Source of the DNA: a virus
Taxonomy: Duplodnaviria; Caudoviricetes
Length of the DNA: 58,423 nt
Strand: one strand, 5' to 3'
Virus record (IMG/VR): IMGVR_UViG_3300027822_000013
Location: 1-58,423 of that record
In this document: positions 14,443 through 52,261 of the stretch, piece by piece
Numbering within the stretch: the first letter of the stretch is position 1
Layout: each line of letters opens with the position of its first letter
The notes under the pieces: generated by a model
The model's input: only the letters and a program-made list of their open reading frames with translations
What the model was told of the DNA's origin: nothing
Database searches by the model: none
Position numbers and translations under genes: made by a program

Positions 14443-14484
14443 TTTAGTCTATCCTTGTTTCTAACAATCGTCAATCACAGCTTC

Positions 14485-14513
14485 TTTATAGTACCAGGTT
14501 CAGTGTAAGTAAA
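14485..14513 (-). promoter_or_regulatory. Sigma70-type promoter TTTACT-N17-TATAAA
   Basis: Exact 17-nt spacer and upstream A/T tract; points into 14442 and the head-tail operon. Confidence 0.7.
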
Positions 14514-14547
14514 GAAAAAATTCTGATTATGGTAAATTATTTTTCCG

Positions 14548-14579
14548 TTAATCATTCTTTAACCCTTTGTCAGTAATAT
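14548..14579 (+). promoter_or_regulatory. CtrA-box promoter TTAATCATTCTTTAAC with TAATAT -10
   Basis: Exact TTAA-N7-TTAAC; -10 lies 11 nt after the second TTAA. Confidence 0.75.
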
Positions 14580-14613
14580 GGTAATCATTGAAACTTAATA
14601 GGAGAGAGAGAAA

Positions 14614-14823
14614 ATGAAACTCACACTTAAAGAGAAAAAGAACCTGATTTCAATCGGTGAAGGCCATAATGTTGACTGCCTTCCCTCTTTGAAAAAGAAA
14701 AATCTGGTGTTCCCTGACGGAACAGGTCTGACCTGTACTGGGCTTGAAGAAGCCAACCGGATTAAGGAAATGCTGGATAAAAAAGCTGACGATGTTGAAA
14801 AGAAAGTGAGGCGACATGATTAA
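14614..14823 (+). CDS. Small hypothetical protein
   Basis: Strong RBS AGGAGAG; first gene of a plus-strand insert. Confidence 0.7.
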   Translation: MKLTLKEKKNLISIGEGHNVDCLPSLKKKNLVFPDGTGLTCTGLEEANRIKEMLDKKADDVEKKVRRHD

Positions 14824-15679
14824 ATTTCTTGGAATAATCCTCTTCACTGTAGGACTGATTTGCGCTCTTAACGATACCTGGATGAATATCGAGTATCAAT
14901 ATGGGCTGGAAAACGAAATCAACAGTTTGGTGGTTGGTGTAATTGTGATGGCGATCATTGCCAACATTGCCTTACCAGCTATTGAATGGGGAAACCAGGC
15001 TGGGAAACGGTCTCACATCCTCCCTCTGTTGATTGTATGGATGATGGCCGGAACATTTTCGTTTCTGGCTTCTGTGGAAAGATCAGGAAGTTCAGCTGAT
15101 GCGAAAATCACCACCATCCAAAACGAGAATAAAGGACTATCCAATGCCCAATCAAAACTCAAACGGGCTGAGGCGAAACTATCTAAGTACAGAGCAGTTG
15201 CTGCCAAGGAATACGTCAAGGTTTGTGATCGTAACGGAAAAGAGAACCGGACCCAGTGCCCAAAGTACTGGACAGCCAAGGATGAGATGGGAGCTGCCCA
15301 AACAGATAAGGACGTGGCTGAGGAAAAAATTGAAAATGCCTCCGCACCGATTGAAGTACACAGTGGTGGCAGAAGGCTGGCTGCGATCCTTCCTGTGGAC
15401 GAAACAGCATTGTCACTTTATCACCCCCTGCTGATGCCTCTAACCTTACCCATGGGGGGTTATGCCTTCCTGTGGTTAGCGTCCATGATGCTCAAGGTTG
15501 AATCCACTCCCCTAGAAGTGGTGACGGTGATGGACAAAAAGCAAGCCCTGGAATGGTACCGGGTTGAAACAGCCAAGGGCAATCGCCCTATGAATAAAGA
15601 ACTGGCTCAAAAAGCCCAAGTCACACCGGGGACCGCAAGCAAGTGGCTCAAAGCTGACCGCCTACAACATGCCTATTAG
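14816..15679 (+). CDS. Multi-pass membrane protein with Cys-pair coiled coil and C-terminal HTH-like tail
   Basis: About three N-terminal hydrophobic helices, coiled coil with C...C, a further TM, then NKELAQKAQVTPGTASKWLK. Confidence 0.7.
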   Translation: MIKFLGIILFTVGLICALNDTWMNIEYQYGLENEINSLVVGVIVMAIIANIALPAIEWGNQAGKRSHILPLLIVWMMAGTFSFLASVERSGSSADAKITTIQNENKGLSNAQSKLKRAEAKLSKYRAVAAKEYVKVCDRNGKENRTQCPKYWTAKDEMGAAQTDKDVAEEKIENASAPIEVHSGGRRLAAILPVDETALSLYHPLLMPLTLPMGGYAFLWLASMMLKVESTPLEVVTVMDKKQALEWYRVETAKGNRPMNKELAQKAQVTPGTASKWLKADRLQHAY

Positions 15680-15689
15680 GAGAGAAACG

Positions 15690-15881
15690 ATGACGAACAA
15701 TATTGAATACTACAAAGCTGAAGCTGACCTGGTAGAGTGGGTGAAAGCCAATCCTGAAAAAGCTGCTGAAGTGACCGCTCATTTCCTTACCGTAATGTGG
15801 GATGCCAACATTGTACGTCTTTACCACAAACTTGCTCAGGACATTGCTCAATGTCCTGTCACAGAGCTAAACCGGGGGTGA
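15690..15881 (+). CDS. Small hypothetical protein
   Basis: RBS AGGAGAG before ATG 15690; followed by a terminator. Confidence 0.65.
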   Translation: MTNNIEYYKAEADLVEWVKANPEKAAEVTAHFLTVMWDANIVRLYHKLAQDIAQCPVTELNRG

Positions 15882-15908
15882 CTCTCTCCCACTTCCTGGT
15901 TACAGGAG

Positions 15909-15943
15909 CACCCCCAGCACAATTCGGTGTTGGGGGTGTTTTT
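15909..15943 (+). terminator. Rho-independent terminator
   Basis: CACCCCCAGCAC/GTGTTGGGGGTG stem followed by a T-run. Confidence 0.85.
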
Positions 15944-15950
15944 GTGTCTG

Positions 15951-15998
15951 AAAACGACCCACCCCGGCTCTGTTAGCAAGCCGGGGTGAGGTCAGTTT
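15951..15998 (-). terminator. Terminator-like hairpin downstream of the portal gene
   Basis: CACCCCGGCT/AGCCGGGGTG stem; the AAAA at 15951 gives a U-run on the minus strand. Confidence 0.6.
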
Positions 15999-17626: not shown

Positions 17627-19180
17627 CTAAATTCCTTCTGCCCTACCTGTTGACATGGTTCTTACTTCCTGACGCACCCTGTATCGACTTTCATCACCAA
17701 TATGGTCTTCAGCCTTTGAGTCAACATCATCCAAATCTTTATCTGACCGGGGAAGGGAGGGGATGGTGCGCAAGAACTGCTCACAATTATCGAATACGAA
17801 CAACCCTGGGTTTTCCCTGGGACCATACTCAGGGGACATTGCATCCTTCATCATTTTACGCATCCTCTGCCAACCCTGTTTCCGGCTCCCTGAAGACTTA
17901 TCTGCTGCCTCCCACTGGATGCCTGGATAGAGCTTGCCGTCAATCCTCACCTCAGCTTCCATATCCGTGGCCACACAATTATCGTTTTGCTCATCAAAGA
18001 TTGAACCATCAGCAATCCCAATTTCCGTCCTGTGGTGAAGTCCCCACTCCAATTCCCGCTCGATTATTCCCTGGGTGATCTGGTCTGCTGTCATCCTCAA
18101 CCCTTCGTTGGGAGTTCCGTTCCAACCATACCACTCAGCCAGTCTAAATAAATCTCCTGCTACCGTACTCATGTAAGAGCCATCAGCCAACTGGACATCG
18201 GTACCATCACTTTCAGCCCACCACCCCACAGAGAAAGGCCGTGATGAACCCCAGTCAAAGGAGCGATCAATGCGCCATGAAGGAGGTATCTTGAAAGGTT
18301 TGATGACCACTTTGTCTTTCGCCTCATACCATATATCATCAAACATCCCTCCAGCAACAATGTCCCAGTCCCCGTAAACCCATGCCCGGCGTTCAGCCGG
18401 GTTACGGGCAGCAGCAGCCACTCGATTAATATATTCAGGGTCAGCAGAAAGCAAGACTTTATTTTCATGGATTGTCCCATGGATCGCAAGTCTGGTTGGT
18501 TCAGGGGTTCCATCCTCCAATTTGCTGTTGGTAATAACCGTGGTGATCATCTTTCCCGGCTTGCACGGCAACTTGTATCTCGCCTTGACCCAGTTATGCC
18601 CAATACCATAGGGATTGGCTGTGGCACGAATTTTCAGGGGGATGCCTTTCACTGTAGAACGTAGGCACGACATCATGGACTTCAAACACTGATCGTTCTC
18701 CCACGTGGTAATTTCCTCCCAGGCTATCCACGGATAAGCATGACCATGATACTTCCAATAGTCATTAGGACGCTGGAACTGTCTAAACCGTAGTGTCTCC
18801 CCATCAGGAAAAGTCCAGAAACTCTTTTGTGTATTGAATTTCGCGCCAGGGTTGAACTGGGGTATCAACTTATGGGATTTCGCAATGACATCTTCCAGGT
18901 CTGGGTAAGATTTTCTGAATAGAATACCTCGCCACTCAGCTCCCCAGCCCTTGCCCACGTCTGCCAAATAGTCTACAAGGAGACAGTCAGTCTTTCCCGG
19001 TCCCCGTGTGCCCTCATACAGCACTTCGGTGGCTGGACAAGAAAGGAATTTCACCTGACTACCAGGTTGGGGTGCCCAAGCCACAGGTTTATAGGTTATC
19101 GGCTTGGTTTGGACCTTCATGAAAGGCCTGAGGCCCACATCTGTGTTGCGCCACACCAATTGTTCAGCTAAGTTGTTCAT
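17627..19180 (-). CDS. terL: Terminase large subunit
   Basis: Walker A YEGTRGPGKT, Walker B WIAWEE, ATANP, nuclease DRSFDWG and EDHIGDESRY. Confidence 0.95.
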   Translation of the reverse strand: MNNLAEQLVWRNTDVGLRPFMKVQTKPITYKPVAWAPQPGSQVKFLSCPATEVLYEGTRGPGKTDCLLVDYLADVGKGWGAEWRGILFRKSYPDLEDVIAKSHKLIPQFNPGAKFNTQKSFWTFPDGETLRFRQFQRPNDYWKYHGHAYPWIAWEEITTWENDQCLKSMMSCLRSTVKGIPLKIRATANPYGIGHNWVKARYKLPCKPGKMITTVITNSKLEDGTPEPTRLAIHGTIHENKVLLSADPEYINRVAAAARNPAERRAWVYGDWDIVAGGMFDDIWYEAKDKVVIKPFKIPPSWRIDRSFDWGSSRPFSVGWWAESDGTDVQLADGSYMSTVAGDLFRLAEWYGWNGTPNEGLRMTADQITQGIIERELEWGLHHRTEIGIADGSIFDEQNDNCVATDMEAEVRIDGKLYPGIQWEAADKSSGSRKQGWQRMRKMMKDAMSPEYGPRENPGLFVFDNCEQFLRTIPSLPRSDKDLDDVDSKAEDHIGDESRYRVRQEVRTMSTGRAEGI

Positions 19181-19213
19181 GAAAATGGACTATAATGGGG
19201 GTGGTTGCAAATA

Positions 19214-19245
19214 TTAACTGGTTATTAAGGTTTCAAGGTTAGGGT
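19214..19245 (+). promoter_or_regulatory. CtrA-box promoter TTAACTGGTTATTAA with TAGGGT -10
   Basis: TTAA-N7-TTAA-N11-TAnnnT upstream of the DUF2786-like gene. Confidence 0.65.
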
Positions 19246-19265
19246 AGTTGGAAAAGGAGAGAACT

Positions 19266-20018
19266 ATGACAAATAATGCGCAAAAGAAACTGGTAAGAAG
19301 AATCAAGAACCTCATGGACCTGGCTGGGAACAACACTTCAGAAGCTGAAGCTGTTGCCGCCATGGCCAAGGCTAGACAATTGATGGATGAATACGGCATT
19401 TCTGTGACTGATGTCAACGAGGTCGATGAAGAGTGGGGTCAGGCAGGAGTAGAATGGACCAGTGGTAAGGCAAGACGTGCTTATCACCGCTCATACCTTC
19501 TGGGAGGAGTGATTGGTCAGGTTTGTGGAACAACTATGTACCGATGTGGTGGTGAAGTATTCTTCTTTGGGCGAAAACATGAAGTTGAAATTTCCCATTA
19601 CATGTTGATGATGGTTCGCAACCTCGTTGAGGGAGCTTATCTGGGGTGGAAGAAAACCGACCAATACATGGTTATGCGATCTAGGGGCGCGCATGCTCCC
19701 CGACTGAAGACCTCATTTGTTAATGGTATGGTCGCCAGCCTTCATCTCAAGCTTCAGGACATGATCCCCCAACCGGGGGAGGGGAGTGGACGTGACCTGG
19801 TGGTCTGTCATCAGGCCGTCATGGAGAGAAAATTGAAGGAGTTTGGTTTAGACATTAAATCCAGTCCTGTGAGTCTGGAGAAAGGTGACCTTCAAGCCGG
19901 GGTGGCTGGTTACGAAGCTGGAGAAAATGCCCAACTCAGTTCTGGTGTTGGTAAATCTGGGAAAGAGACTGGTGGTTTAACGAGTGGTGTAACTGGTGTG
20001 AAATTAATTGGGGGATAA
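19266..20018 (+). CDS. DUF2786-domain protein
   Basis: RIKNLMDLA...EAEAVAAMAKARQLMDEYGIS, FFG and SFVNG motifs; RBS before ATG 19266. Confidence 0.85.
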   Translation: MTNNAQKKLVRRIKNLMDLAGNNTSEAEAVAAMAKARQLMDEYGISVTDVNEVDEEWGQAGVEWTSGKARRAYHRSYLLGGVIGQVCGTTMYRCGGEVFFFGRKHEVEISHYMLMMVRNLVEGAYLGWKKTDQYMVMRSRGAHAPRLKTSFVNGMVASLHLKLQDMIPQPGEGSGRDLVVCHQAVMERKLKEFGLDIKSSPVSLEKGDLQAGVAGYEAGENAQLSSGVGKSGKETGGLTSGVTGVKLIGG

Positions 20019-20101
20019 ATCCTATGTGGTGTGTTTTGTGGGTTGTTGTAGCATTTTTCTTTGGTGTGATAATTGGGTATTCCATGAAAGGGTGGTGAGT
20101 T

Positions 20102-20350
20102 ATGGAGTGGTGGCTAGTATTTTGCTTTGGTTATTTCGGGGGTTATATTTGGAGGGGTTTTAGGGGAGGTCGTCAATTCTCGTATCGGGAGTATCGCCAG
20201 GTGGTGGACCTCGAATGTGAAATGAAGAGGGTTGATACACTTCTTGCCCAAAGGGAGAGGTTGGATGCGAGTGAGTTGGAACATCTTATGTGGAAAAAAG
20301 ATTATCTGGTGGGGGAAATCCTGGAGATTGTGGGAGGTAGGTTGGTGTGA
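20102..20350 (+). CDS. Small protein with N-terminal TM segment
   Basis: Hydrophobic N-terminus; continues the plus-strand operon. Confidence 0.5.
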   Translation: MEWWLVFCFGYFGGYIWRGFRGGRQFSYREYRQVVDLECEMKRVDTLLAQRERLDASELEHLMWKKDYLVGEILEIVGGRLV

Positions 20351-20684
20351 TGGGGGACTACAGGGAGAAGGGGTGAATTGCCAGGGAAGTTTGGTGTTTG
20401 AAAATGGTGTTTGGTGAATTTTTCAGTTTTGGTAGGTATTTGGTTGTTGCGAGTTCGTGGACCATCCCGACCCCACCATAGACCACTAGGGGGTCCCACC
20501 CACCATGGTCTAATCGGCCCTATACCCCACCCCTCGCCACCATAGACCAGCGAACCTAGCACCAATCAACCCTAACTCCATTCCTATATACCCCAGCTTA
20601 TACGCCCTTAGACCCCAGCTAATAGCAATTCAACCCCCCTCGCCACCAAATTTCCCCTCGTTCCGAAATCCCAAAAGGTAAGTC

Positions 20685-20953
20685 TTAACAAGACCTTAAG
20701 GAAATCTCGAATAGACCCCCATAGGTAGTAAACCCTTAACCTGGGTTAGGGAGCGTTAGGGGTTATTACCAGGAGGTTAAGGCGGGGGGAAACCCGCCCT
20801 ATATTAACCATACCTTAACAATTGAACCAAACAGGAAATAAATCCCCCCTATTAACCAGGGGTTAGGGTTTGTTCTGGGCTATCTAACCCCCCTAAAATA
20901 AAACGAAATTCATTCGTTACATTAAGCTGATATTAAGGAATATACTCTATTCT
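20685..20953. promoter_or_regulatory. Cluster of CtrA-like boxes ending in a plus-strand promoter
   Basis: TTAA-N7-TTAA at 20685, 20804 and 20922; variants at 20766 and 20852; -10 TATTCT at 20948. Confidence 0.7.
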
Positions 20954-21030
20954 TAGATTATAGAGAGTTCGGAATCACCCGGCGCTCGTTACCCCCAGGC
21001 CCCCGCGCTTGGACTTCTAAGGAGAGAATT

Positions 21031-21255
21031 ATGACTTTTACTATTGGAACCCCCGTCACCCTCGTTAACCGCGATACGGGAATTACCTGTAAATCCACCG
21101 TTAGTCGGGTAAGTTCTGACGGTTCCTTCACTACTACCTTTTCGGCTCGTAAATATTCCCCCGCTAAAATCTGGGACGGTAAAAGCGATATGGTCCTTGC
21201 CGGATTGGCGAAAAACGTAGATTTCCGCGCTATCCAGGTTTTCCCCGCCTCGTAA
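21031..21255 (+). CDS. Hypothetical early protein
   Basis: RBS AAGGAGAG, own promoter and terminator. Confidence 0.75.
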   Translation: MTFTIGTPVTLVNRDTGITCKSTVSRVSSDGSFTTTFSARKYSPAKIWDGKSDMVLAGLAKNVDFRAIQVFPAS

Positions 21256-21282
21256 AATCTACTTTAGAAACCCTCTAAACTT

Positions 21283-21323
21283 GACCTTTTTCAGTTTTTC
21301 CGAGCTGAAAAAGGTCTTTTTTT
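21283..21323 (+). terminator. Rho-independent terminator
   Basis: GACCTTTTTCAG/CTGAAAAAGGTC stem followed by T7. Confidence 0.8.
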
Positions 21324-21761
21324 GCGAAAATTCAGGGTAATTCGATAAAAGTCGAAATACGGGAGAGGCCACAGGCGTTGGCTTCTCAAAAAGTCAACCC
21401 CCCGAAAAACAGCTGCGAAATTCTTAACGTGTTTTTAACGTGGGTCTAAAATCTTGGCTGGGTATTGGGTCGGTCATGGTTGGTTTGGTGGGTAGGGAAG
21501 GGGGAAAAGTGGGCTAGCGTCAAGATTTTTCACAGAGGGAGGGTGAGTGGGCCGTTCACGTAAAATCTGGCTATTTTCCACACAATTCACCAGGAAAACT
21601 TGGGCAAATTGGCACCAAACTCCAATATCTTTACTTTCGTTGATTGGCTTTTCACCCAAACATATACACCCCCGTTGGGGCCACATTTATATATTCTCTT
21701 AATCCCTTAACTTAATTAATTATATATAAATATATACAAAAACCGCCCTAACCGTACCCCC

Positions 21762-21897
21762 TCTACTCTCTATTCTCCCTGAATTTTTCATTTACCCAAG
21801 TTGCTTAAGTAAATGCCGGAACCCCCACTCCCTAGACAATAGGACGTACACCCTTGATCCCATTTGCTTAAGTAACTGCCCAAGTTGCTTAAGTAAC
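21762..21897. repeat. Iteron-like locus 1 (putative replication origin)
   Basis: TCTACTCTCTATTCTCCC block, three TTGCTTAAGTAA copies, AT-rich tract at about 21686-21740. Confidence 0.55.
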
Positions 21898-22068
21898 TCC
21901 AGCTTTTCCAACCCCCACAAATACGCGCTTTTCTTTCTTCAGAGAAATCGTACCCCCTTTAACCCCCCTTTAACCCCCCTTCGTTCTAAAATCGCAAAAT
22001 CGGCAAAATCCTCACTTCTGGCAACCTGATACCCCCTTAAGAAATCGTTAAATCAGTCGAAAACACAC

Positions 22069-22095
22069 AAAAAAGCCGGGTTTCCCCGGCTTTTT
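22069..22095. terminator. Bidirectional terminator
   Basis: A-run, GCCGGG/CCCGGC stem, T-run. Confidence 0.8.
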
Positions 22096-22112
22096 CCTCC
22101 TATTTCCAATTA

Positions 22113-22274
22113 TTAAAGAGCAGTAAAACACTGGTCCAGATTATTTCCTATCACTTCTACCCTATACCCTGCCGCCAGCATCTGAGCTCTAACCAAAGGC
22201 AATGTCTTTTCCGATACCTGCTGAACCTGGATTATTCGGTCCTCATCCAAAACGATAAGTGTCTTATTGGGCAT
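22113..22274 (-). CDS. Small hypothetical protein (53 aa, MPNKTLIVLDEDR...)
   Basis: RBS AAGGAGAG, upstream CtrA-type promoter, downstream terminator; below the ORF-track cutoff. Confidence 0.7.
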   Translation of the reverse strand: MPNKTLIVLDEDRIIQVQQVSEKTLPLVRAQMLAAGYRVEVIGNNLDQCFTAL

Positions 22275-22324
22275 TTTGTCTCTCCTTATTAGAGAGACAA
22301 AACCCGCCTCCCTTTCTACTCTTT

Positions 22325-22416
22325 ATAGTACCTAAAAACCATTAACCCTAAGTTACTGAAACTAAATAATAAATCCCTCCCTCTTTAACCCAGTTTTAAC
22401 TCTTTTCCCGTATTCT
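22325..22416. promoter_or_regulatory. Divergent pair of CtrA-box promoters
   Basis: Minus: GTAA-N7-TTAA-N11-TACTAT (22356-22325). Plus: TTAACCCAGTTTTAAC with TATTCT (22385-22416). Confidence 0.75.
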
Positions 22417-22462
22417 CTTATTATAGGGCGGGACTTCCCCGACCCAAACCAAGGAGAGAGAC

Positions 22463-22588
22463 TTGAGCTTCACACAAAAAGCCATCCACATGCACCAAAT
22501 CGCGGTTATCGAGGCCAGAAGAGCCGGACAATATAGCGCGGTTTGGTACCACATTGAACAGATCGAAAAATTGGAGAAACAGCTATGA
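22463..22588 (+). CDS. Small hypothetical early protein (41 aa, TTG start)
   Basis: RBS AAGGAGAG; ATGA overlap with the next gene. Confidence 0.55.
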   Translation: MSFTQKAIHMHQIAVIEARRAGQYSAVWYHIEQIEKLEKQL

Positions 22589-22791
22589 ACGACCATCAAA
22601 TCCACACATTCACCAAAACGCCAGTACGGTTCTTTATTCTTGACGAAAATCTCGAAATCCAACAGAGCCCAGAACACGAGTTCCAGGCCGCAATCAACAC
22701 AGGAGACTACACAATCTCATACGAGCGACACACGGTCAGAGAAAACGGTGTATCACAAATCTGCTTAACCGCCACCCCAAAGTGGATATAG
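22585..22791 (+). CDS. Hypothetical early protein
   Basis: ORF in early operon, GGAG RBS. Confidence 0.65.
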   Translation: MNDHQIHTFTKTPVRFFILDENLEIQQSPEHEFQAAINTGDYTISYERHTVRENGVSQICLTATPKWI

Positions 22792-22883
22792 ACTGGTATA
22801 GCTCCCTTTGACGAAGTCATCGGGAGCTATAGGACCCAGGAACCTCACAACGAGGTCACCACAAACGAATAGGAGAGAGAACT
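22792..22883 (+). repeat. Structured intergenic element, type A copy 1
   Basis: Near-identical to 23736-23824; TATAGCTCCC/GGGAGCTATA stem plus CCTC/GAGG hairpin. Confidence 0.85.
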
Positions 22884-23318
22884 ATGAACAGAGCACTTCC
22901 AGTATCCCAGGTGATGAACTACCTGGTTGAAATCCGCAGCAAGATGAGTTGCCAGAATACGGGATCAGTCCACAGCATGAAGCACGCTAGTTTCAACCAC
23001 AGTAAGAACATGACGGACATAATAGAGGCCAGCGCAGCAGCATCCATCGCTGAAGAACTCTATAAAGAGGTCCAAGTATCAACCAAAACTTATATGAGGG
23101 TCAAGAAGGTAGGGAACGAGCGTCACAACGTAACCTTCATTGATTCCAATGTCGTTAAGGATTTGGTTGTTAAGCTCCTATTGAAATACACAGCCAGGGC
23201 TAAATCACTCTCCTTCACAATCGAAGGACTACAACATCAAGCAGAATTAAACAACCTGACCAAATTTCTCAACTCAACCATGCAAGGCACCTACAGCTTT
23301 GAGGACATGATCAAATAA
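22884..23318 (+). CDS. Hypothetical early protein
   Basis: Strong RBS; flanked by repeat elements. Confidence 0.75.
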   Translation: MNRALPVSQVMNYLVEIRSKMSCQNTGSVHSMKHASFNHSKNMTDIIEASAAASIAEELYKEVQVSTKTYMRVKKVGNERHNVTFIDSNVVKDLVVKLLLKYTARAKSLSFTIEGLQHQAELNNLTKFLNSTMQGTYSFEDMIK

Positions 23319-23428
23319 TCCCCCACCCCCAAAACCAGATGCAACTCAACCTTCCCGGCCACTCGCCAAGGGGAGGTTGAGGCAGTAGAAAGGCCGCAAT
23401 TTCGCGGCCTTCAATCAGGAGAGAAACT
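23316..23428 (+). repeat. Structured intergenic element, type B copy 1
   Basis: TAATCCCC...CCAGATGCAAC head, CTCAACCT/AGGTTGAG stem, AAGGCCGC/GCGGCCTT hairpin; similar to 25158-25267. Confidence 0.85.
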
Positions 23429-23707
23429 ATGACCAGATATTTCGTCATGCCGGCCATCACGGACCCTATCGAAGGCACCAAGCTTCGTTACCTCACAGAA
23501 ACCCAGGCAAACAACGAGGAATTTCAAACCAAATTAGCTGATGAGGAATACGCTTCAATCGCTTGGTTTGACGAAGAAGGTGCAGCCCACCACCCAGGTA
23601 TAGGGGGTCAACTAATTACCATCCAACCTATTGATTTGGGCTACATTGACCCCGACATCCCCACGGCAATCGCCCTCCACGCTGTGGTGAAGTATGTCTT
23701 CACCTAA
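23429..23707 (+). CDS. Hypothetical early protein
   Basis: Strong RBS; flanked by repeat elements. Confidence 0.75.
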   Translation: MTRYFVMPAITDPIEGTKLRYLTETQANNEEFQTKLADEEYASIAWFDEEGAAHHPGIGGQLITIQPIDLGYIDPDIPTAIALHAVVKYVFT

Positions 23708-23824
23708 TAATCCCCTACCCTTAATACCAGATGCAACTGGTATAGCTCCCTTTGACGAAGTCATCGGGAGCTATAGGACCCAGGAACCTCCTAACGAGGC
23801 ATCCACAAACCAAAGGAGAGAGAC
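23708..23824 (+). repeat. Structured intergenic element, type A copy 2
   Basis: Shared head plus about 55 nt identical to copy 1. Confidence 0.85.
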
Positions 23825-24202
23825 ATGAAGAACTTTAACACCCAAGCCGCATTGATTAACCTCACCACCCTGCTTAGAGAGGCCACAGGGATGACCCTAG
23901 TGCTCAAGCTTGAACAGACTACCACTCGAAATGGTAAACCCACCTTAGAAATCACGTCTGAGGACCTTGCTGACCGCCAGGTGCCTCGAATGTTTGAAGA
24001 GCTTAGAGTCATCAACACCCACATAGACCTAGTTGAGGACCCCAAACACGGTAAGGTCTGGGCAATTCCTCTTCACTACCGATACCAACATTTTAGGGGT
24101 GGATCCAACGGCAGCGAGATCACCACAGCCTGGGTCAACGAGAAAGGTGAGATTGTTGGTTGTTACTGCCCCATGAACCCCAAGCTAGACATAAACTCAT
24201 AA
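23825..24202 (+). CDS. Hypothetical early protein
   Basis: Strong RBS; YRYQHFRGGSNG motif seen in small phage proteins. Confidence 0.75.
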   Translation: MKNFNTQAALINLTTLLREATGMTLVLKLEQTTTRNGKPTLEITSEDLADRQVPRMFEELRVINTHIDLVEDPKHGKVWAIPLHYRYQHFRGGSNGSEITTAWVNEKGEIVGCYCPMNPKLDINS

Positions 24203-24206
24203 GACA

Positions 24207-24292
24207 AAAGGGGAAGGGGGTGTGTCCCCCTTCCCCTTATTTTTATTGACCACACGAAAAAGGCTGGGGGAAATTCATCCCCCAGCCTTTCT
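24207..24292. terminator. Two terminator hairpins between convergent genes
   Basis: AAGGGGAAGGGG/CCCCTTCCCCTT followed by a T-rich run; AAAAGGCTGGGG/CCCCAGCCTTTT. Confidence 0.8.
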
Positions 24293-24310
24293 TCTATTTA
24301 CCAATTTGAG

Positions 24311-24745
24311 TCAACGAGCTGGTTTCCCCTCTTTCTTTTTCGCTTCGGAAACAGCCTTGCCCCAAAACTTCAGGTCACTCCCCCCAATTCCCCTTGAGGG
24401 GTGAGCGATGTCGTACCACTTCTGAAACATAATCTGCCCCATGAGATTAGAAATTTGAGAAGTCGATCTGCCGACTACATCACAGGGTCTTACTTCCTCT
24501 TGGGCAATCTCACGGATCAGTTTGACTGTCCATACAGTACCTCCTTTTTGGACCCAACCTCTATACCTGTTAAGGATTTCGAGGGTGGCAGCGTTCTTCA
24601 GACTGTTATCAGCCCAACCTAATGCATGAGCAGGGTCGTTTTGTTGAAGTTTCTCGATAAAGTCCTGGTGTTCTTTTTCTGCGTATTCAATCAGAAAATC
24701 TAGCTCTTCTAACAGGTCTTTTTCGTCCAGTTCTAATTCATCCAT
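24311..24745 (-). CDS. Hypothetical early protein
   Basis: RBS AAGGAGAG before ATG 24745; own CtrA-type promoter. Confidence 0.75.
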   Translation of the reverse strand: MDELELDEKDLLEELDFLIEYAEKEHQDFIEKLQQNDPAHALGWADNSLKNAATLEILNRYRGWVQKGGTVWTVKLIREIAQEEVRPCDVVGRSTSQISNLMGQIMFQKWYDIAHPSRGIGGSDLKFWGKAVSEAKKKEGKPAR

Positions 24746-24794
24746 AATTTCTCTCCTTAGATAGCCCAGGGACAATCCCCGGCCTTATTCCTCT

Positions 24795-24886
24795 ATATTA
24801 CCTAAAAACCATTAAAACTAAGTTACTGAAATTAAATAATAAAAGTTATTTTCATTTACCTGATGTTAATCCTTTTGCCGTACTAT
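24795..24886. promoter_or_regulatory. Second divergent pair of CtrA-box promoters (paralogous to 22325-22416)
   Basis: Minus: GTAA-N7-TTAA-N11-TAATAT. Plus: TTTA-N7-TTAA-N11-TACTAT. About 50 nt nearly identical to 22329-22375. Confidence 0.75.
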
Positions 24887-24932
24887 AGAGGAATAAGAAG
24901 GCAATCACGCTTTCTACACAAGGAGAGAAACT

Positions 24933-25160
24933 ATGAGTAGATACGAAGTTCACGTTATGGATTTTGATAGCGGGTCGGGTTCTATTGGACCAGAGGTGGT
25001 GATCAAAAACCTCTCCCTGGTAAAGGCTCGCAAGATTTGTACCCGTGCGGCAAGGCGGGGATTCAACCTCTATGGGGGCAAAATCACCACAGAAAATTGG
25101 GGTGCTACGGGAGGTACACGTGGTGAACGATACCGTATGGCTGCTATCAGAATGAATTAA
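24933..25160 (+). CDS. Hypothetical early protein
   Basis: RBS AAGGAGAG. Confidence 0.7.
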   Translation: MSRYEVHVMDFDSGSGSIGPEVVIKNLSLVKARKICTRAARRGFNLYGGKITTENWGATGGTRGERYRMAAIRMN

Positions 25161-25267
25161 TCCCCCACCCTCAAAAACAGATGCAACACACCTCCCCCGC
25201 TTTTGCGTAGGGAGGTTGAGGTAGTAGAAAGGCCGCAATTTCGCGTCCTTCATTAAGGAGAGAGACT
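25158..25267 (+). repeat. Structured intergenic element, type B copy 2
   Basis: Same head and hairpins as 23316-23428 with a changed inner stem-loop. Confidence 0.85.
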
Positions 25268-25678
25268 ATGAAAGACAAGTTTGAAGTAGGGGATCGGGTT
25301 GCCCGGTTCAGTTCATCACGTAACTACCCTCGGCGTCCAGGTGAATTCACTGAAGACCGGATTGCCAAAATCTACAAGACGGGTAAAATCATCTTGGAAA
25401 GCGACCCTAAGAAGCAATATGCGCCCTATAATTATTCCAACCGGATCGCAGCCAGACAGACCAAGGATGAGTATCATTCATCGGGTTTCTATCTTTGGGG
25501 TGAGGAAATAGATAAAGAGATCAGTGATACAGCTGCTAAAAGTGACCGCCAAACTCGATACCTAAAGATCAAGGAAAAAATCGTCAATATAGACAAATAC
25601 AGCAGCCGTTGGGATATTGACGAAGAATTGCTTCAGGGCCTTGAAGCTTTGTTTACTGAGAAAGGAGAAAAATCATGA
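25268..25678 (+). CDS. Hypothetical early protein (SH3/beta-barrel-like N-terminus)
   Basis: FEVGDRV...IAKIYKTGKI pattern; RBS. Confidence 0.7.
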   Translation: MKDKFEVGDRVARFSSSRNYPRRPGEFTEDRIAKIYKTGKIILESDPKKQYAPYNYSNRIAARQTKDEYHSSGFYLWGEEIDKEISDTAAKSDRQTRYLKIKEKIVNIDKYSSRWDIDEELLQGLEALFTEKGEKS

Positions 25679-25857
25679 TTGTAAGACGCCATACCGAACC
25701 GAACTGGAGGAAGTTCAAGGAAAGTAACGAATATGCTGATGACGCCCTCTTTTGGTGGTTGTGTGCCCAAATCGCTGTGACCCCAGCCTCAAGGGAAATT
25801 GCCCTCAAGCGATGTGAGACCCAGTTTACATTTGCGATAGACACCCTTTGGGCCTAA
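25675..25857 (+). CDS. Hypothetical early protein
   Basis: ATGA overlap, AAGGAG RBS. Confidence 0.65.
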   Translation: MIVRRHTEPNWRKFKESNEYADDALFWWLCAQIAVTPASREIALKRCETQFTFAIDTLWA

Positions 25858-25974
25858 TCCCCAGAAAGGAAAACCAGATGCAACTCCTATAGCGCCCTTG
25901 GAACCTTTCCAAGTGGCGCTATAGGACCCAGGAGCCTCACAACGAGGTCACCAGAAACTAATAGGAGAGAAAAT
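25855..25974 (+). repeat. Structured intergenic element, type A copy 3 (diverged)
   Basis: CCTATAGCGCC/GGCGCTATAGG stem with a compensatory change; GGACCCAGGA linker retained. Confidence 0.85.
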
Positions 25975-26271
25975 ATGAACCTAGAGCGATTCAACCGATA
26001 CTTATTGGAGCTTGACCACCGTGTCGGGTGTCCTAAATCACATCAATTTCAGTACCTGGTGAAGCAGGTCGATACCACCACTTTCACCTTTGTATTTGAT
26101 GGTTTAGTTTGCTGTGCTATTCGTTTCAACGATGACGGGTCCGTTGACGAGAACCAAGATGTTGACCCCTCTAAACCCATCACCGAATATCACAAACATT
26201 TTGCTTCACATCGAGAATGGATCGAAAATGTATGTGAAGAACTAGCCTTGCCCATAGAGTGTAGAAGATAA
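25975..26271 (+). CDS. Hypothetical early protein
   Basis: RBS AGGAGAG. Confidence 0.7.
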   Translation: MNLERFNRYLLELDHRVGCPKSHQFQYLVKQVDTTTFTFVFDGLVCCAIRFNDDGSVDENQDVDPSKPITEYHKHFASHREWIENVCEELALPIECRR

Positions 26272-26355
26272 CACAACACCACAAAAACTCAACTCCCCCT
26301 TCACCAGTAGAACGCTGGAGGGGGTTTTTCTATAATCCCCAGAAAGGAAAACCAG

Positions 26356-26700
26356 ATGCAACTCAACCAAATGAACCCCCACATCATCAACGATATGCTC
26401 AGGGATAGTCACCAATGGGTGACCCTTGGACACCTGGAACGAACTTGGGGGATGGTGAAACACAAATATCCCATGCTAGATGATGAAAACTATCACGAAT
26501 GGGTCCTAGAGTTGACCAAGCACCCGTCTGGCCTCCCTGATGACCTTAGACAGACTATCGTACAACTCTTGGGTAAGGGGGTGGTGTTCCGCTATAAGGA
26601 CAACCAAATTGAGGCGAAACATCCCAATTATTACTTCATCAACAATATCCAAGTGGATAAGGATGTCTATGTAAATGCCCAGGAAATATTGAACTGGTAA
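26356..26700 (+). CDS. Hypothetical early protein starting within the repeat head motif
   Basis: AAAGGA RBS; its ATG is the one in CCAGATGCAAC. Confidence 0.65.
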   Translation: MQLNQMNPHIINDMLRDSHQWVTLGHLERTWGMVKHKYPMLDDENYHEWVLELTKHPSGLPDDLRQTIVQLLGKGVVFRYKDNQIEAKHPNYYFINNIQVDKDVYVNAQEILNW

Positions 26701-26985
26701 CTATTTGAGTTTTCTCTCAAACCGACAGGAATAAGCTATATCACCTCCTTTGCGGGGGTGGGCCTTTTCACATTGCCGTTCAAAGGCGGCTATGATTCTA
26801 GCATCCCCGTCCCTATCCCCAATCCTTTGGGCTGCTACAATCAAGGTCATCCCGATCATTACCCCAACCAAAAACTTGTACATCGTTCCCACCTCCATCA
26901 CACATAAAAACAGTCCCTGGGGCGGCGTACATTCCCCAGGGACTGTTCGGGTACTGCTGGGCAAGGGTAGTTGGGTGCCCAGCAA
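26701..26985 (-). CDS. Small membrane-anchored protein (start probably internal, MYKFLVG)
   Basis: Hydrophobic segment followed by a Cys pair; GGAGG upstream of the internal ATG. Confidence 0.5.
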   Translation of the reverse strand: MLGTQLPLPSSTRTVPGECTPPQGLFLCVMEVGTMYKFLVGVMIGMTLIVAAQRIGDRDGDARIIAAFERQCEKAHPRKGGDIAYSCRFERKLK

Positions 26986-27513
26986 TCAGTCAACGTCTGC
27001 CCCGTTATCCTCAATCCATTCTTCCATGGAGCCTTCACCAGAAGGAACAACCAACACCCCTGTATTGACGTTAACCTGGGTAGCGTTACCATCAGTACGG
27101 TAGGCAGGGTCATGTTTCTTCAAAGCAGCCAGCAAAAGAGTATCGCTGTAGGTGGTTTTGGTACCTACTTTCTTACCACCAAAGAAGATGTCTTCATCCA
27201 CCCCCTGTAGTGCCCGGCGAAACAATTCTTGTTCCAACACAGTGTCCGTGAATATTTGAACAGCCATCACACAGGCTTCATCAAATTCCCCGTTGATTTT
27301 TCGGGTATTCTTTATCATCCACATACTAACACCACACAATACAGCAGCTGTGGTTTCGTTGCCGTACCGGGCTACAGTACGCACAAACTCATCTTGACGT
27401 TGCTTAGTGAATTTCCTCCCAGATGCGCCGGCAGGAACCGTATGACCTACAACAGTCACATACCCATCGGGAGGGGGTTGGCCCTCTTCAAGCTCAATTT
27501 CACGATCAAACAT
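26986..27513 (-). CDS. terS: Terminase small subunit
   Basis: HTH-like N-terminal half, LEQELFRRALQG, YSDTLLLAALK..P..Y and GVLVVP...EEW motifs typical of TerS. Confidence 0.8.
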   Translation of the reverse strand: MFDREIELEEGQPPPDGYVTVVGHTVPAGASGRKFTKQRQDEFVRTVARYGNETTAAVLCGVSMWMIKNTRKINGEFDEACVMAVQIFTDTVLEQELFRRALQGVDEDIFFGGKKVGTKTTYSDTLLLAALKKHDPAYRTDGNATQVNVNTGVLVVPSGEGSMEEWIEDNGADVD

Positions 27514-27516
27514 TCA

Positions 27517-27840
27517 TCACCTGAAACTTAAAACATACACCATACCTGCTACGGCCCACCATCGGGTGGGTTCAAGCAGATTAGGGGATTTCCAATCTTG
27601 GATGATTTCCAAAATCAGCCGTATAACCATCACAGCTATTACTAAGTGTAGCAGAAACAAGGGGAGCCCAGGCAAACCCCCAATCACCTGATCAATCAAT
27701 TTACTTAAGTCAATTCTCATCTGTACCAACTCCCCATTTATTCTCATATACCCTATACCCCCAGAAAGTAAAACTGCGATAGCCAGAAGCCGGGACTGGT
27801 GCCCCGGCTTCTGTTTTACTCTACACCACCAGATTAGCAA
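27517..27840 (-). CDS. Small membrane protein
   Basis: Hydrophobic segments; start uncertain. Confidence 0.45.
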   Translation of the reverse strand: MLIWWCRVKQKPGHQSRLLAIAVLLSGGIGYMRINGELVQMRIDLSKLIDQVIGGLPGLPLFLLHLVIAVMVIRLILEIIQDWKSPNLLEPTRWWAVAGMVYVLSFR

Positions 27841-28199
27841 GCCATAGGGAGCTTACTACTATCAAAGTCAAGGCGATAAAATCGCCCCAGTGTTGACGGG
27901 TCATATTCTTTCCTTTGTATTGGTGGCCCGCCTCTTAGATATAAGCGTTATTTACGTCTTAAAAAAGTATCGGTGTGGATCCAGATACCTAAACCCAGTG
28001 TAAAGGACATAAACACAGCATACCACGTGGCGAATACCATGATTGGTGCCAACATAATAATTGCCACTCCTAAACGATGCAACCACTTAACCATTCCAGT
28101 GTTTCCTTATACGTTTTCCAACCCATACACTAGCGTCCATAATCAAATCGAACACCAAAAAGACTATAAAAAGACCCCCCACAGCAAGTACAGTATTCG

Positions 28200-28727
28200 T
28201 CATTCTCTGGACCTCCTTACTAAGTTAGTGAACTCCTTCAACTCCAAAAACACATCACATTGTCTTCTTAATTCGTCTGCCGTAGTAACCATAGTGGAAA
28301 CCACCACCACTATTTTCCCCTTTCTTTGCAGTTCTTCCACCAATGCTTTGAAATCTCCATCCCCGCTGAAGATAACCGCCACATCAATGTGGGGGGCCAG
28401 GTTCATTGCCCCCAGAACCAATTCAACATCCATATTACCTTTTCGTGTGATCTCTCCTGCCCCGTTCTCAAACTCTTTTACAGGCTTGGTGACCATTTGA
28501 AAACCGTTATACTGTAACCAATCCAACAACGGACGTAAAGAAGAATAATCGTCACCTTCAGTGACCGCAGTATAGTACAAGGCCCGAATAAAATTGGTGT
28601 TGTGTTGAAACCACTCGATCAATCCGGCATAATCCATTTCCCCGCCAAGGGCTTTAAGACTGGCGTGGAGGTTAGCCCCATCAATAAATAGGGCTGTGCG
28701 TTTGGTGTTTGATTTAAATATGTCCAT
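28200..28727 (-). CDS. NYN-domain (LabA/DUF88, PIN-like) protein
   Basis: FIDGANL, KGNMDVEL, SGDGDF and ADELRRQCDVF motifs. Confidence 0.92.
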   Translation of the reverse strand: MDIFKSNTKRTALFIDGANLHASLKALGGEMDYAGLIEWFQHNTNFIRALYYTAVTEGDDYSSLRPLLDWLQYNGFQMVTKPVKEFENGAGEITRKGNMDVELVLGAMNLAPHIDVAVIFSGDGDFKALVEELQRKGKIVVVVSTMVTTADELRRQCDVFLELKEFTNLVRRSRE

Positions 28728-28728
28728 G

Positions 28729-29118
28729 TTACTTATTCCAGGGTTTAAAGTTGAGAAGATCGCTGATAGGGGGCCATGTACCGTTAAAAGTCAACGCCCG
28801 GTCATCAATCGTTACCATCGCCGGGGGTTTGGAAATAGGCCATTTAATGTGCTTATAGACTAATTCGATCACGTTGATTTCGGGGGCGTGTTCTTCAAGA
28901 CAATACTGCAACCATTCCTGCATTGCCTCAATACCCCCTGGTTGGCTTGACCTTGAGGAGTATATTTGAACATTAAAGTGTTTATGAGCCACAACCAGAA
29001 AATCCAAAGCACCTCTTACCGGGGGATCAGATATGATTGCAGCTCCACTCCACCCACTAGTGTAGCTATGAATCACCCCATCAAAGTCCAGACATAGTAT
29101 TGGTTTACGTTTTGACAT
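28729..29118 (-). CDS. HAD-family phosphatase (PNKP / 5'-nucleotidase-like)
   Basis: LDFDGVIHSY, YSSR and KPPA..TIDDRA motifs. Confidence 0.85.
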   Translation of the reverse strand: MSKRKPILCLDFDGVIHSYTSGWSGAAIISDPPVRGALDFLVVAHKHFNVQIYSSRSSQPGGIEAMQEWLQYCLEEHAPEINVIELVYKHIKWPISKPPAMVTIDDRALTFNGTWPPISDLLNFKPWNK

Positions 29119-37680: not shown

Positions 37681-38217
37681 TTAATTAGAAGCTTCACAAA
37701 CGGGGTAATACAGAGTTTCCCAAACTCGATATGAGGGTGTTTTATCCACAGCACAGTTTTTGACAAACCAACCATCAATTTTTATCAGAAATTCCATGGC
37801 TTTAGGCCACGACATTTCGTATTGTTCAATTGCCCAGATACCAAGTTCCAGGATGTCAATTTGCTTGAGTATAAACTCCCATCCCGGTTCGAGATTGACG
37901 TGTTGAATCCACCCGTTATCAGAGTTGATCTTATGTTCGATATTTTTGATCATTCTGGCAAACTCAGGGTTGTCCCATTTAACATGAGTTGGTATATCAC
38001 CCAAATCGTATTCGGCTTGGTCGTGGTATAACAACGATAGGATGACATCACGAGGGGCTTGTGGGTAAAGTTCCAGAAGGATACAAATTGCATCGTAACT
38101 GTGTTTACCAACAGTGTAGTCCGGCCCCAAGTGGGTGTGGATGTGGCAGCGTCTTACGTTGCTGCCGTTCCTTAGTCTCCTGATCTTATTTACCTGTTCC
38201 ATATTCCACCCCATCAT
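37681..38217 (-). CDS. HD-domain 5'-deoxynucleotidase (YfbR-like)
   Basis: VRR.H...TVGKHS, LLYHDQAE..LGDIPT and LKQID.LE motifs. Confidence 0.85.
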   Translation of the reverse strand: MMGWNMEQVNKIRRLRNGSNVRRCHIHTHLGPDYTVGKHSYDAICILLELYPQAPRDVILSLLYHDQAEYDLGDIPTHVKWDNPEFARMIKNIEHKINSDNGWIQHVNLEPGWEFILKQIDILELGIWAIEQYEMSWPKAMEFLIKIDGWFVKNCAVDKTPSYRVWETLYYPVCEASN

Positions 38218-39214: not shown

Positions 39215-39497
39215 CTTGGTTTTCTTTCATTTCGTTAAATATGGGGCCATCAATACAGCAGCCACGACCCAACTTGGGCATTTCAACCACCACATGTGAT
39301 ACCTGAAATTTACCATCCTGGTGTGTAAACTCAAACACTCCTTCAGGCTCTAAACCTAAAGCCATCATCAAAGGCCACTGTTGTCTTTGGAACTGTAAAG
39401 CCAATTCGACAGTTTCAAATAGAGTATTGGTGGCTGGAAAAAACACCACATTATCATTGTTGTCTTTCCATTTGGGGGTGTACCCGGTTTCATCCAT
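39201..39497 (-). CDS. Hypothetical protein
   Basis: RBS AAGGA; operon context. Confidence 0.6.
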   Translation of the reverse strand: MDETGYTPKWKDNNDNVVFFPATNTLFETVELALQFQRQQWPLMMALGLEPEGVFEFTHQDGKFQVSHVVVEMPKLGRGCCIDGPIFNEMKENQDDSS

Positions 39498-43711: not shown

Positions 43712-43716
43712 CGTTT

Positions 43717-52260: not shown

Positions 52261-52261
52261 A

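Follow-up and report, generated by a model that had tools for sequence, protein, structure and literature searches.

Two-hairpin elements with an invariant two-block head between the small genes of an island in a marine siphovirus genome

What are the structured sequences that recur between the small genes of a marine phage, and do they act in RNA or in DNA? The question is raised by a locus in IMG/VR virus record IMGVR_UViG_3300027822_000013, the whole of which (58,423 bp; completeness estimate, 93%) was analyzed and is referred to here as the window. Nearly all genes of this phage lie on the minus strand, and the elements are found within a plus-strand island at ∼19.2-26.7 kb. The family consists of five elements and one head-only copy that follow one modular non-coding design: a stop codon is followed by a two-block head and a long hairpin that bears an apical hairpin; a purine-rich linker then leads to a short hairpin, and beyond an unstructured A/C-rich stretch come a ribosome-binding site and an ATG. 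A first-pass annotation of this DNA had described the five elements and the head-only copy, and all of its coordinates and sequences were found in the sequence. We tentatively favor, at somewhat less than an even chance, the view that the elements are RNA-level intercistronic modules which process, stabilize, and insulate each cistron, that their head is recognized by a protein, and that the repeats also provide recombination homology in the manner of the promoter-early stem-loops (PeSLs) of T4-type phages. The finding rests on one uncultivated genome, read from DNA.

Anatomy and placement of the elements

By their hairpins, the elements fall into type A (three bodies, at 22790, 23734, and 25881) and type B (two bodies, at 23342 and 25184), all on the plus strand. 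In element A1 (22792..22883), hairpin 1 occupies 22793-22839 (outer arms, 22797-22806 and 22822-22831). The linker GGACCCAGGA (22832-22841) leads to hairpin 2 (22843-22855), and the ribosome-binding site AGGAGAGA (22871-22878) precedes an ATG at 22884. In A2 (23708..23824), the head (23708-23737) abuts the stop codon of gene 23429-23707, and hairpin 1 (23737-23783), the linker (23776-23785), hairpin 2 (23787-23799), and the ribosome-binding site (23814-23821) lead to an ATG at 23825. A3 (25855..25974) begins with a head (25855-25884) whose TAA closes gene 25675-25857. Hairpin 1 of this element (25885-25926) has a replaced apical hairpin and one compensatory pair, and is followed by the linker (25924-25933), hairpin 2 (25935-25947), the ribosome-binding site (25963-25970), and an ATG at 25975. 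In B1 (23316..23428), the TAA of the head (23316-23345) ends gene 22884-23318, and downstream of it come hairpin 1 (23345-23381, with one G-U pair), a purine-rich linker, hairpin 2 (23392-23409), a ribosome-binding site (23417-23424), and an ATG at 23429. B2 (25158..25267), which has the weakest fold, starts with a head at 25158-25187 whose TAA terminates gene 24933-25160, and continues with hairpin 1 (25190-25216), hairpin 2 with one mismatch (25231-25248), a ribosome-binding site (25256-25263), and an ATG at 25268. Of the four heads that come after a gene, three provide its stop codon with their TAA, and the remaining one adjoins a TAA that belongs to the gene itself.

The remaining two cases show that the parts can occur apart. 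At 26333..26364 (plus strand), a head is present and hairpins are not: this copy is an exact 32-nt duplicate of 25855-25886, and the ATG at 26356 opens an open reading frame (ORF) at 26356-26700. A1, which was at first described as a copy without a head, indeed has no intact one, but a decayed head-like stretch (22764..22791, plus strand) could be aligned to the intact heads at the end of ORF 22585-22791, which reads through it. The hairpins of A1 are nevertheless perfect, with 55 nt identical to A2. Since A1 has hairpins and a decayed head, and the copy at 26333 has a head alone, head and hairpins are separable modules.

The elements occupy two promoter-to-terminator operons, in which they stand only between cistrons and always along the direction of transcription. 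Both operon promoter regions are marked by a 53-nt repeat, whose two copies (22321-22373 and 24791-24843) are 91% identical, and each region combines sigma-70-like sites with a divergent small minus-strand gene. In operon 1, promoter and leader span 22321..22462 (plus strand), with sigma-70-like sites at 22342-22370 and 22396-22424 and the divergent gene at 22113-22274; in operon 2, they span 24791..24932 (plus strand), with the divergent gene at 24311-24775. Operon 1 runs from ORFs of 41 and 68 aa through A1, 144 aa, B1, 92 aa, A2, and 125 aa to two intrinsic terminators (24208..24290) identified by the terminator scan, the first of which is bidirectional. The order in operon 2 is 75 aa, B2, 136 and 60 aa, A3, 98 aa, a terminator-like hairpin with a T5 run, the head-only copy, and 114 aa. 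This hairpin (26293..26329, plus strand) follows gene 25975-26271; it was read from the sequence and is not in the terminator scan list. Altogether, 11 small plus-strand ORFs of 41 to 144 aa are set apart by the elements (22463..26700). Two junctions are element free; there, start and stop codons overlap by 4 nt (22585-22588 and 25675-25678).

On both strands, all island genes are preceded by the ribosome-binding site AGGAGAGA-N4-5-ATG. The window contains 15 copies of AGGAGAGA against 2.0 expected, and 11 of the 15 are at gene starts of the island (19.2-26.0 kb); two further copies lie in a second small plus-strand island (14.6-15.9 kb), and the ribosome-binding sites of the remaining phage genes are weaker and more varied. 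This second island (14480-15980), located within the structural module, has three ORFs, including one for a 287-aa protein without a family match, and the same AGGAGAGA ribosome-binding site. A CTTTATAGTACC motif is common to it and to both promoter regions of the main island.

That the elements punctuate an array of unrelated small genes, as had been proposed, was confirmed, and these genes are without known relatives. None of the island genes between elements had a PHROG match at E ≤ 0.001 or a Pfam match above cut-off. Scans for loci related to the cassette proteins brought up no genuine relative. In a search of 5.8 billion proteins, the 144-aa and 114-aa proteins had no match but themselves; a second contig, of 58,575 nt, carries identical cassette proteins. 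The 136-aa protein has 18 distant homologues. For this protein, assignment to a phage ProQ-C-like Pfam family was rejected (E = 0.014, below cut-off; only 2 of 19 family members match, at E ∼0.002). The family has no sequence match in the PDB, and the structure model of the 136-aa protein, confident as it is (pLDDT 87.6), has no Foldseek match at E ≤ 0.001. The suggestion that the cassettes carry anti-defense genes is thus speculation, the cassette genes being without known families.

We next consider the hairpins. Run on the window, the type A covariance model returned exactly three copies (96 to 107 bits) and the type B model two (94 to 102 bits); with filters off there was no further hairpin copy in the window, and the next-best matches had E values of 0.28 and 0.14. 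Compared with 200 shuffles each, all three type A elements fold better than any shuffled version (z = −4.5 for A1, −4.6 for A2, and −6.3 for A3; 0/200 as good in each case), and the type B elements reach z = −4.3 (B1; 1/200) and −2.0 (B2; 6/200). Folding of the leaders of both operons' first genes is not exceptional compared with shuffles. The predicted helices are 15 to 22 bp long with internal loops, and the ribosome-binding site is unpaired in most predicted folds. As stated by the first-pass annotation, the hairpins are not intrinsic terminators: none is among the 22 terminator-like sites of the scan, while canonical terminators close both operons, and no U-tail or T-run follows the stems, where the sequence reads GGACCC, TCACC, or TTCAATC. 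A tRNA-like nature of the elements was dismissed (0 tRNA genes).

The claim that pairing is kept despite sequence change had to be qualified. Strict covariation of pairs is weak, since a single one of the 13 alignable pairs in type A shows a two-sided change (from U-A to G-C), and 185 of 500 shuffles do at least as well. However, whole apical hairpins have been replaced and still fold: TGAC-GAA-GTCA stands against TTGGAA-CCT-TTCCAA in type A, and GGC-CACTC-GCC against CGC-TTTT-GCG in type B. When the inner segments were shuffled, 150/2000 (A1), 0/2000 (A3), 337/2000 (B1), and 195/2000 (B2) shuffled versions folded as well. The G-U pair of B1 is a G-C pair in B2, which also has three pair-breaking changes: hairpin 1 is interrupted by a bulge and a mismatch, and hairpin 2 by one mismatch.

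Searches for homologues of the element were negative throughout. Rfam 15 gave no match at gathering score in the whole window, and none of 6 matches at E ≤ 1 within 19000-29000 lay over the hairpins; one match to a microRNA model on the minus strand (E = 0.17), overlapping the A3 head, was taken as chance. Blastn of 22400-26800 against 50,697 phage records found no match, and blastn of 19001-28000 against 106 fetched loci gave only three short ones (E = 0.013 to 0.53). Exact head and type A linker patterns had 3 + 3 single matches in viral contigs, all in unrelated coding DNA, and the head pattern had 54 single matches in metagenome contigs. Against 47 loci of relatives (675,669 bases), both covariance models yielded 0 matches at E ≤ 1, and in the whole records of five relatives, the type A model gave one 13-bit match (E = 0.09) and the type B model none. 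In the literature, we found nothing on such an element beyond papers on PeSLs, the repeats of phage YuA, and the SAS/ESAS of mycobacteriophages. The description of the element as new therefore holds for Rfam and for the phage, viral, and metagenome collections and relatives' genomes searched. The covariance-model search that the first-pass annotation had recommended found no homologue in Rfam or relatives, and with three sequences formal covariation is not significant.

These results also bear on the suggestion that the elements are catalytic or sensing RNAs (a self-cleaving ribozyme or a riboswitch) or polymerase-modifying antiterminator RNAs, which we consider the most improbable explanation of all. 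A two-hairpin architecture of 60 to 75 nt would suit such an RNA, which would have to be a new class given that it has no Rfam match. Aside from the general layout, however, types A and B have no common conserved nucleotides between or within the hairpins and thus no common core, their loops are not conserved, and Rfam is blank at E ≤ 1 over the hairpins. The placement of the elements is moreover not that of antiterminators, between promoter and terminator.

Constraint on the head and the signals it may carry

The head, TAATCCCC-N12-CAGATGCAAC, occurs in five copies, all on the plus strand (23316, 23708, 25158, 25855, and 26333), where shuffles expect 0.00. Even if up to 3 mismatches were allowed, only these five copies were found (0.09 expected). 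All 18 positions of the two blocks, TAATCCCC and CAGATGCAAC, are invariant in 5/5 copies. Their 12-nt spacers, in contrast, exist in four distinct versions that differ pairwise at 2 to 8 of 12 positions, and by parsimony there has been ∼1 change per spacer site versus 0 in the 18 block sites. Since the spacers changed and the blocks did not, the head blocks appear to be read sequence specifically. This constraint on the head, evident from comparison of the copies, is a point absent from the first-pass annotation.

Further signals were seen in the head-only copy. There, the ATG inside block 2 opens ORF 26356-26700 and is preceded by an AAGGA at a distance of 8 nt; AAGGA, ATG, and ORF together indicate that the head is probably transcribed. 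In the same copy, the TAAT and the two bases before it read TATAAT. This is the only head with a perfect second sigma-70 hexamer (read from the sequence), and its first hexamer is poor. A scan with the sigma-70 consensus listed 17 promoter-like sites, none of them in any of the six elements. By folding, the head-only copy is unstructured (z = +0.5). Three other functions of the head were rejected: a mini-ORF from the head ATG has inconsistent lengths and stop positions and lacks a ribosome-binding site in 3 of 5 copies; a Rho-loading site in a C-rich head would be too short, and two copies are not C-rich; and sequestration of the ribosome-binding site by a C-rich head spacer does not fit the purine-rich spacers of A3 and the head-only copy.

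What, then, reads the head? The main rival to an RNA-level role is that the head is a phage-specific internal promoter, whose blocks would be recognized as −35 and −10 by host RNA polymerase together with a phage cofactor or by an alternative sigma factor. Hairpin 1 would then be a 5'-terminal stem-loop and the elements promoter cassettes like the YuA repeats or PeSLs. We regard this as unlikely on balance, albeit a serious contender. Two unlike invariant blocks at a fixed distance of 12 nt with a free spacer are the classic promoter pattern; the head is always directed to the next gene, and the lone head stands right after a terminator and before ORF 26356-26700. Support also comes from related phages. 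The GenBank annotation of YuA (NC_010116) lists five 28-bp intergenic repeats as a "putative sigma70 promoter requiring phage-encoded cofactor." ONT-cappable-seq of YuA mapped nine start sites that share one conserved motif and were inactive in a promoter trap (PMC10914365, Table S3), and transcription units are described there as short (PMC10914365). In these YuA repeats, a copy-variable inverted repeat flanks the −35-like box. The heads of the closest complete relative (see below) also resemble a −10 box.

Other observations are difficult to reconcile with a promoter. No head is among the 17 sigma-70-like sites, and the blocks are unlike either hexamer of that scan. No gene for a sigma factor or single-subunit RNA polymerase was found in the searches made, one of which was weak, its control having matched nowhere. 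YuA boxes occur in the window at chance level (7 versus 4.5 expected and 51 versus 47.6 expected), with no match inside the elements. A transcript starting 6 to 9 nt after block 2 would begin in the 5' arm of hairpin 1 and so cut off the conserved outer stem, and neither the conserved outer pairs nor the AAGGA-N8-ATG of the head-only copy would be explained. Furthermore, both operons already have promoter regions of their own, and A1 works, or at least persists perfectly, without a head. Two candidate promoters elsewhere in the elements were discarded as well. For a T7-like promoter in the type A sequence CTATAGG, no such polymerase gene was found, by a search whose control was uninformative, and a YuA-style −35/−10 pair inside hairpin 1 has a spacing that differs by 2 nt between A1/A2 and A3 and no type B counterpart.

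Alternatively, the head might be a DNA-level binding site of a phage regulator that switches the island on or off, either as an activator site or as an elongation block similar to the stoperators of cluster A mycobacteriophages, which block transcription elongation. To this we assign little probability. The site is asymmetric, invariant, in one orientation, and placed in short intergenic gaps at stop codons, and the divergent small gene before each operon may encode a regulator. The stability of the folds is equal on both strands, so that sequence alone cannot separate RNA hairpins from DNA palindromes (for this reason, strand asymmetry of folding was abandoned as an RNA-versus-DNA test), and such strand-symmetric energies allow a DNA-level role. 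On the other hand, the two blocks show no relation to one another, as the half-sites of most dimeric regulators do, Pfam detected no DNA-binding domain in the island proteins, and the hairpins would be left unexplained.

A second repeat family in the window is a separate matter. TTACTTAAGCAA boxes occur three times in 21784-21901 and six times, on both strands, in 51999-52265. On the minus strand, a common GGGAGAATAGAGAGTAGA follows one TTACTTAAGCAA box per region (21808 and 52162). Sequence upstream of YuA start site P002 has similar ACTTACTTAA repeats. The TTACTTAAGCAA-box regions are likely operator/promoter regions for leftward transcription.

Flanking repeats and recombination

The first-pass annotation had offered a recombination scaffold as a further role of the elements. 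Marks of this kind are present. A1 and A2 share a 55-nt exact direct repeat, 944 nt apart, which encloses two genes and B1, and the A3 head and the head-only copy share a 32-nt exact direct repeat, 478 nt apart, which encloses hairpins, gene 25975-26271, and its terminator. Similarity among the type A elements is mosaic: in hairpin 1, A1 agrees with A2 at 40/42 positions and with A3 at 28/42, and in the 3' part, with A3 at 40/45 and with A2 at 38/45. An integron-like, site-specific version of the idea fared less well, as no recombinase of any kind was detected. In the 93%-complete genome, a tyrosine recombinase (PF00589) had no match at E ≤ 1, with positive controls in 14/14 genomes, a serine recombinase was likewise not found (control positive in 13/14 genomes), and Pfam scans of the window proteins revealed no recombinase either.

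In the one DNA run that contains the stretch, contigs end exactly at the 55-nt and 32-nt repeats, and repeat depth is twice that of the surroundings. Its contigs, which drop rare forms, contain no alternative junctions or variants. One 54,921-nt contig of the public run carries window positions 26335-28000 at one end and 19000-22821 at the other, and its length is 11 nt above that of the 54,910-nt path from 26335 through the window end and start to 22821. The window record would thereby close to a circle, a complete and probably circularly permuted genome, which IMG/VR labels as linear. Runs of CCACCACCACC on the plus strand at 1-60 and 58017-58405 would encode glycine-rich repeats in minus-strand ORFs at both record ends, which fits a single gene spanning them.

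Could the elements be integron-like cassettes, with heads and hairpins as sites folded in single-stranded DNA, and circular one-gene units moved by a dedicated recombinase? The 478-nt unit of hairpins, gene, and terminator between identical 32-nt heads looks as it would after integration of a circle, the hairpins keep structure rather than sequence, and the genes between elements are mutually unrelated. The missing tyrosine and serine recombinases, given the positive controls and the blank Pfam scans, nonetheless make this very unlikely. In addition, the 12-nt spacer that separates the blocks is variable, which a crossover region is not, alternative junctions are missing from the contigs of the only run (with the loss of rare variants mentioned above), and homologous recombination suffices to account for the repeats, with no need of a dedicated enzyme. 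Integron attC sites, too, are imperfect palindromes with structure but variable sequence that lie between unrelated genes of the same orientation, and direct repeats flank a unit in both cases; here, however, there is no integrase, each element has a strong ribosome-binding site, and the invariant part is a linear two-block motif. The resemblance of type B to attC is partial and is given no weight.

The same repeats could also be functionless, either duplication or recombination scars of one ancestral junction (stop codon, leader, and start of ORF 26356) or a small selfish repeat at gene borders. We consider this improbable. The exact 55-nt and 32-nt duplicates point to recent events, one head copy holds a working-looking ribosome-binding site and an ATG that starts a real ORF, the family is private to this genome, and both B2 and the A1 head are in decay. 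Against mere scars, the invariance of the blocks (18/18) while spacers differ at up to 8/12 positions argues for selection, apical hairpins were exchanged for other hairpins and not lost, and relatives keep analogous elements at equivalent places.

As a long shot, expression and exchange might be coupled without an integrase. The head would then be the recognition site of a phage sequence-specific enzyme, e.g., the NYN nuclease described below or an island protein, that cuts RNA or DNA at gene borders and so links the punctuation of expression with excision and capture of accessory, possibly counter-defense, genes as one-gene mini-circles.

Analogous repeats, known systems, and a tentative reading

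By its structural and replication genes, the genome is that of a siphovirus, and the phage is an uncultivated YuA/RDJL-like marine siphovirus. Its large terminase is at most 59.6% identical to that of any cultured phage, the nearest being Roseobacter phage RDJL3, Bordetella phage FP1, and the Pseudomonas Ab18/YuA group (∼54% for YuA), and at most 59% identical to those of 46 IMG/VR loci. The island is flanked by the small terminase gene (26986-27513; PHROG E = 2.5e-30) and the large terminase gene (17627-19180). These two genes are separated in the window by 7.8 kb of opposite orientation (19248-26985) with its own promoters and terminators and ∼1.7 kb of non-coding DNA; in RDJL3 one small gene lies between them, and YuA has them side by side. 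A gene for an NYN-domain (PIN-like) nuclease (28200-28727, minus strand; Pfam E = 4.9e-33) was found two genes upstream of that for the small terminase. A thymidine hypermodification cluster (38186-44556, minus strand) contains a thymidylate-synthase-like gene, 5-hmdU DNA kinase domains (PF18723 and PF18748), an amino acid:DNA transferase (PF18724), a PLP enzyme, and a gene labeled "DNA repair photolyase" by PHROGs. Judging from this cluster, the phage DNA probably has modified thymidine, as is the case in phages of the M6/YuA group.

Arrays of similar layout were found in two relatives. The closest complete one is an IMG/VR record (61,843 bp; 38% G+C) whose terminase is 57% identical. At one end of this record, on the strand opposite to the terminase genes, small genes form an array with three copies of a private repeat. 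This repeat consists of an AT-rich head, a hairpin (outer stem, 2x2 internal loop, and inner stem), ∼30 nt, a GGAGAA ribosome-binding site, and an ATG. Its 9-nt head core occurs 18 times on the array strand within 2.3 kb and three times elsewhere, and the repeat is present in that record only. The early array of RDJL3 has unrelated unique hairpins in its gaps and a stereotyped AGGAGAA-type ribosome-binding site, with no repeat family. Dispersed repeats upstream of terL in high-GC relatives turned out not to be intergenic elements: they are the common 5' ends of paralogous genes. In five such relatives (L014, L016, L021, L032, and L037), paralogous small genes 2.5 to 8 kb upstream of terL have a near-identical 5' end encoding MKDA-GHGSN-.

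Among known systems, PeSLs are one of those that come closest. They comprise a terminator stem-loop and then a near-consensus sigma-70 promoter (PMC2839356 and PMC4122927). Like the elements here, they are short composite repeats that border small genes without assigned function, in a part of the genome that is plastic, and they carry a conserved G/C-rich stem-loop, a ribosome-binding site, and an ATG. Their spacing of 0.4 to 1.4 kb is similar, short enough for the genes in between to be deleted, duplicated, or circularized through <50 bp of homology, with no dedicated recombinase known. The elements here differ in that they have no U-tail and no consensus promoter in the scan, and in that they combine two hairpins with a separate upstream two-block head inside operons with their own promoter and terminator.

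The YuA repeats, too, are conserved repeats in short gaps after stop codons and before a ribosome-binding site and ATG, with an inverted repeat of copy-variable stem sequence, and do not function as an ordinary host promoter (PMC10914365). YuA, however, conserves −35- and −10-like boxes while the stems vary, whereas here stems and linker are conserved and the apical part varies. Moreover, the YuA copies with their mapped start sites are spread along the genome; here the elements are confined to one island, and the YuA motif is absent from them. SAS/ESAS of cluster K mycobacteriophages are likewise ribosome-binding-site repeats just before start codons of non-structural genes in one orientation (PMC3203893 and PMC12699233). 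Upstream of about half of the copies lie imperfect inverted repeats whose spacer varies, and the function given for them is putative only. They have another sequence and a host of another phylum, and ESAS is one 17-bp inverted repeat of conserved sequence, without a head or second hairpin; the copies number 11 to 19 per genome and are conserved across the phage cluster. The 13-bp SAS consensus was not matched by the motif here (AGGAGAGA-N4-5-ATG), so that the layout alone is alike. With no consensus promoter, terminator tail, or common motif, and with a different order of parts, the elements belong to none of these three groups.

The RNase III sites of the T7 early operon offer a further parallel. 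There, cleavage leaves a hairpin on the 3' end of the upstream message, where it acts as a stabilizer. One promoter region, one terminator, and intercistronic internal-loop hairpins without U-tails before the ribosome-binding site are common to both arrangements. Sequence similarity does not exist, the helices here are shorter and interrupted (∼15 to 22 bp), T7 sites have neither an invariant single-stranded head nor a second hairpin, and cleavage at the elements is a proposal.

The RNA-level model that we tentatively prefer can be outlined as follows. Each operon would be transcribed into one RNA from the upstream promoter region to the terminator, and the elements would act in that RNA. The two hairpins would bracket the single-stranded linker as the site at which the polycistronic RNA is cut or at least partitioned, with hairpin 1 shielding the upstream message at its 3' end and hairpin 2 the downstream message at its 5' end. 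The open ribosome-binding site would be insulated from the upstream coding sequence, so that any gene behind the module is expressed alike. The invariant head would be what a trans-acting protein, be it a nuclease or a regulator, recognizes. As to the enzyme, RNase III-type processing at the elements is plausible, and the NYN-domain nuclease is conceivable as the processing enzyme. Finally, the recurrent 30 to 60 nt at gene borders would offer homology for phage recombination, by which units of one or two genes may have been duplicated, deleted, or swapped as with PeSLs in T4-type phages.

Some further observations favor this RNA-level reading. As in the T7 early operon, a single promoter region and a single terminator serve each operon; in A1, the hairpin module is retained in the absence of an intact head; pairing at the base of hairpin 1, immediately downstream of the head, is preserved; the head-only copy implies a transcribed head; and both the closest complete relative and RDJL3 carry arrays with head, hairpin, or ribosome-binding-site features of this kind. 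Several points weigh on the other side. A two-block invariant single-stranded head is not obviously needed for RNA processing and is a pattern seen more typically in promoters; in YuA, intergenic hairpin repeats of a comparable kind are mapped transcription start sites, and the head-only copy lies directly after a terminator, where a promoter would fit best. The linkers are U-poor and unlike between types A and B, with no known cleavage consensus visible. As to structure, three of the four apical-hairpin shuffle tests are weak individually, formal covariation falls short of significance as noted, B2 looks like a decaying copy, and the strand symmetry of the folds leaves room for a DNA-level role. 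No RNA run containing the stretch was found; the sole run that contains it is a DNA run from a marine metagenome, possibly the source. Nor was a close relative found in which to compare gene content from element to element.

In phages, the accessory genes that evolve fastest are kept in arrays of small genes without known relatives, and how such genes are uniformly expressed and exchanged is known in detail only for the PeSLs of T4-type phages. Related phages each own a version of such a junction, a mapped promoter in YuA and a private family in the closest complete relative. If the parts of the present elements could be assigned, the head as promoter or processing signal and the hairpins as end protectors, they would show how siphoviruses of the YuA/RDJL group express any gene that they capture, and might possibly provide a portable insulating junction for synthetic operons.

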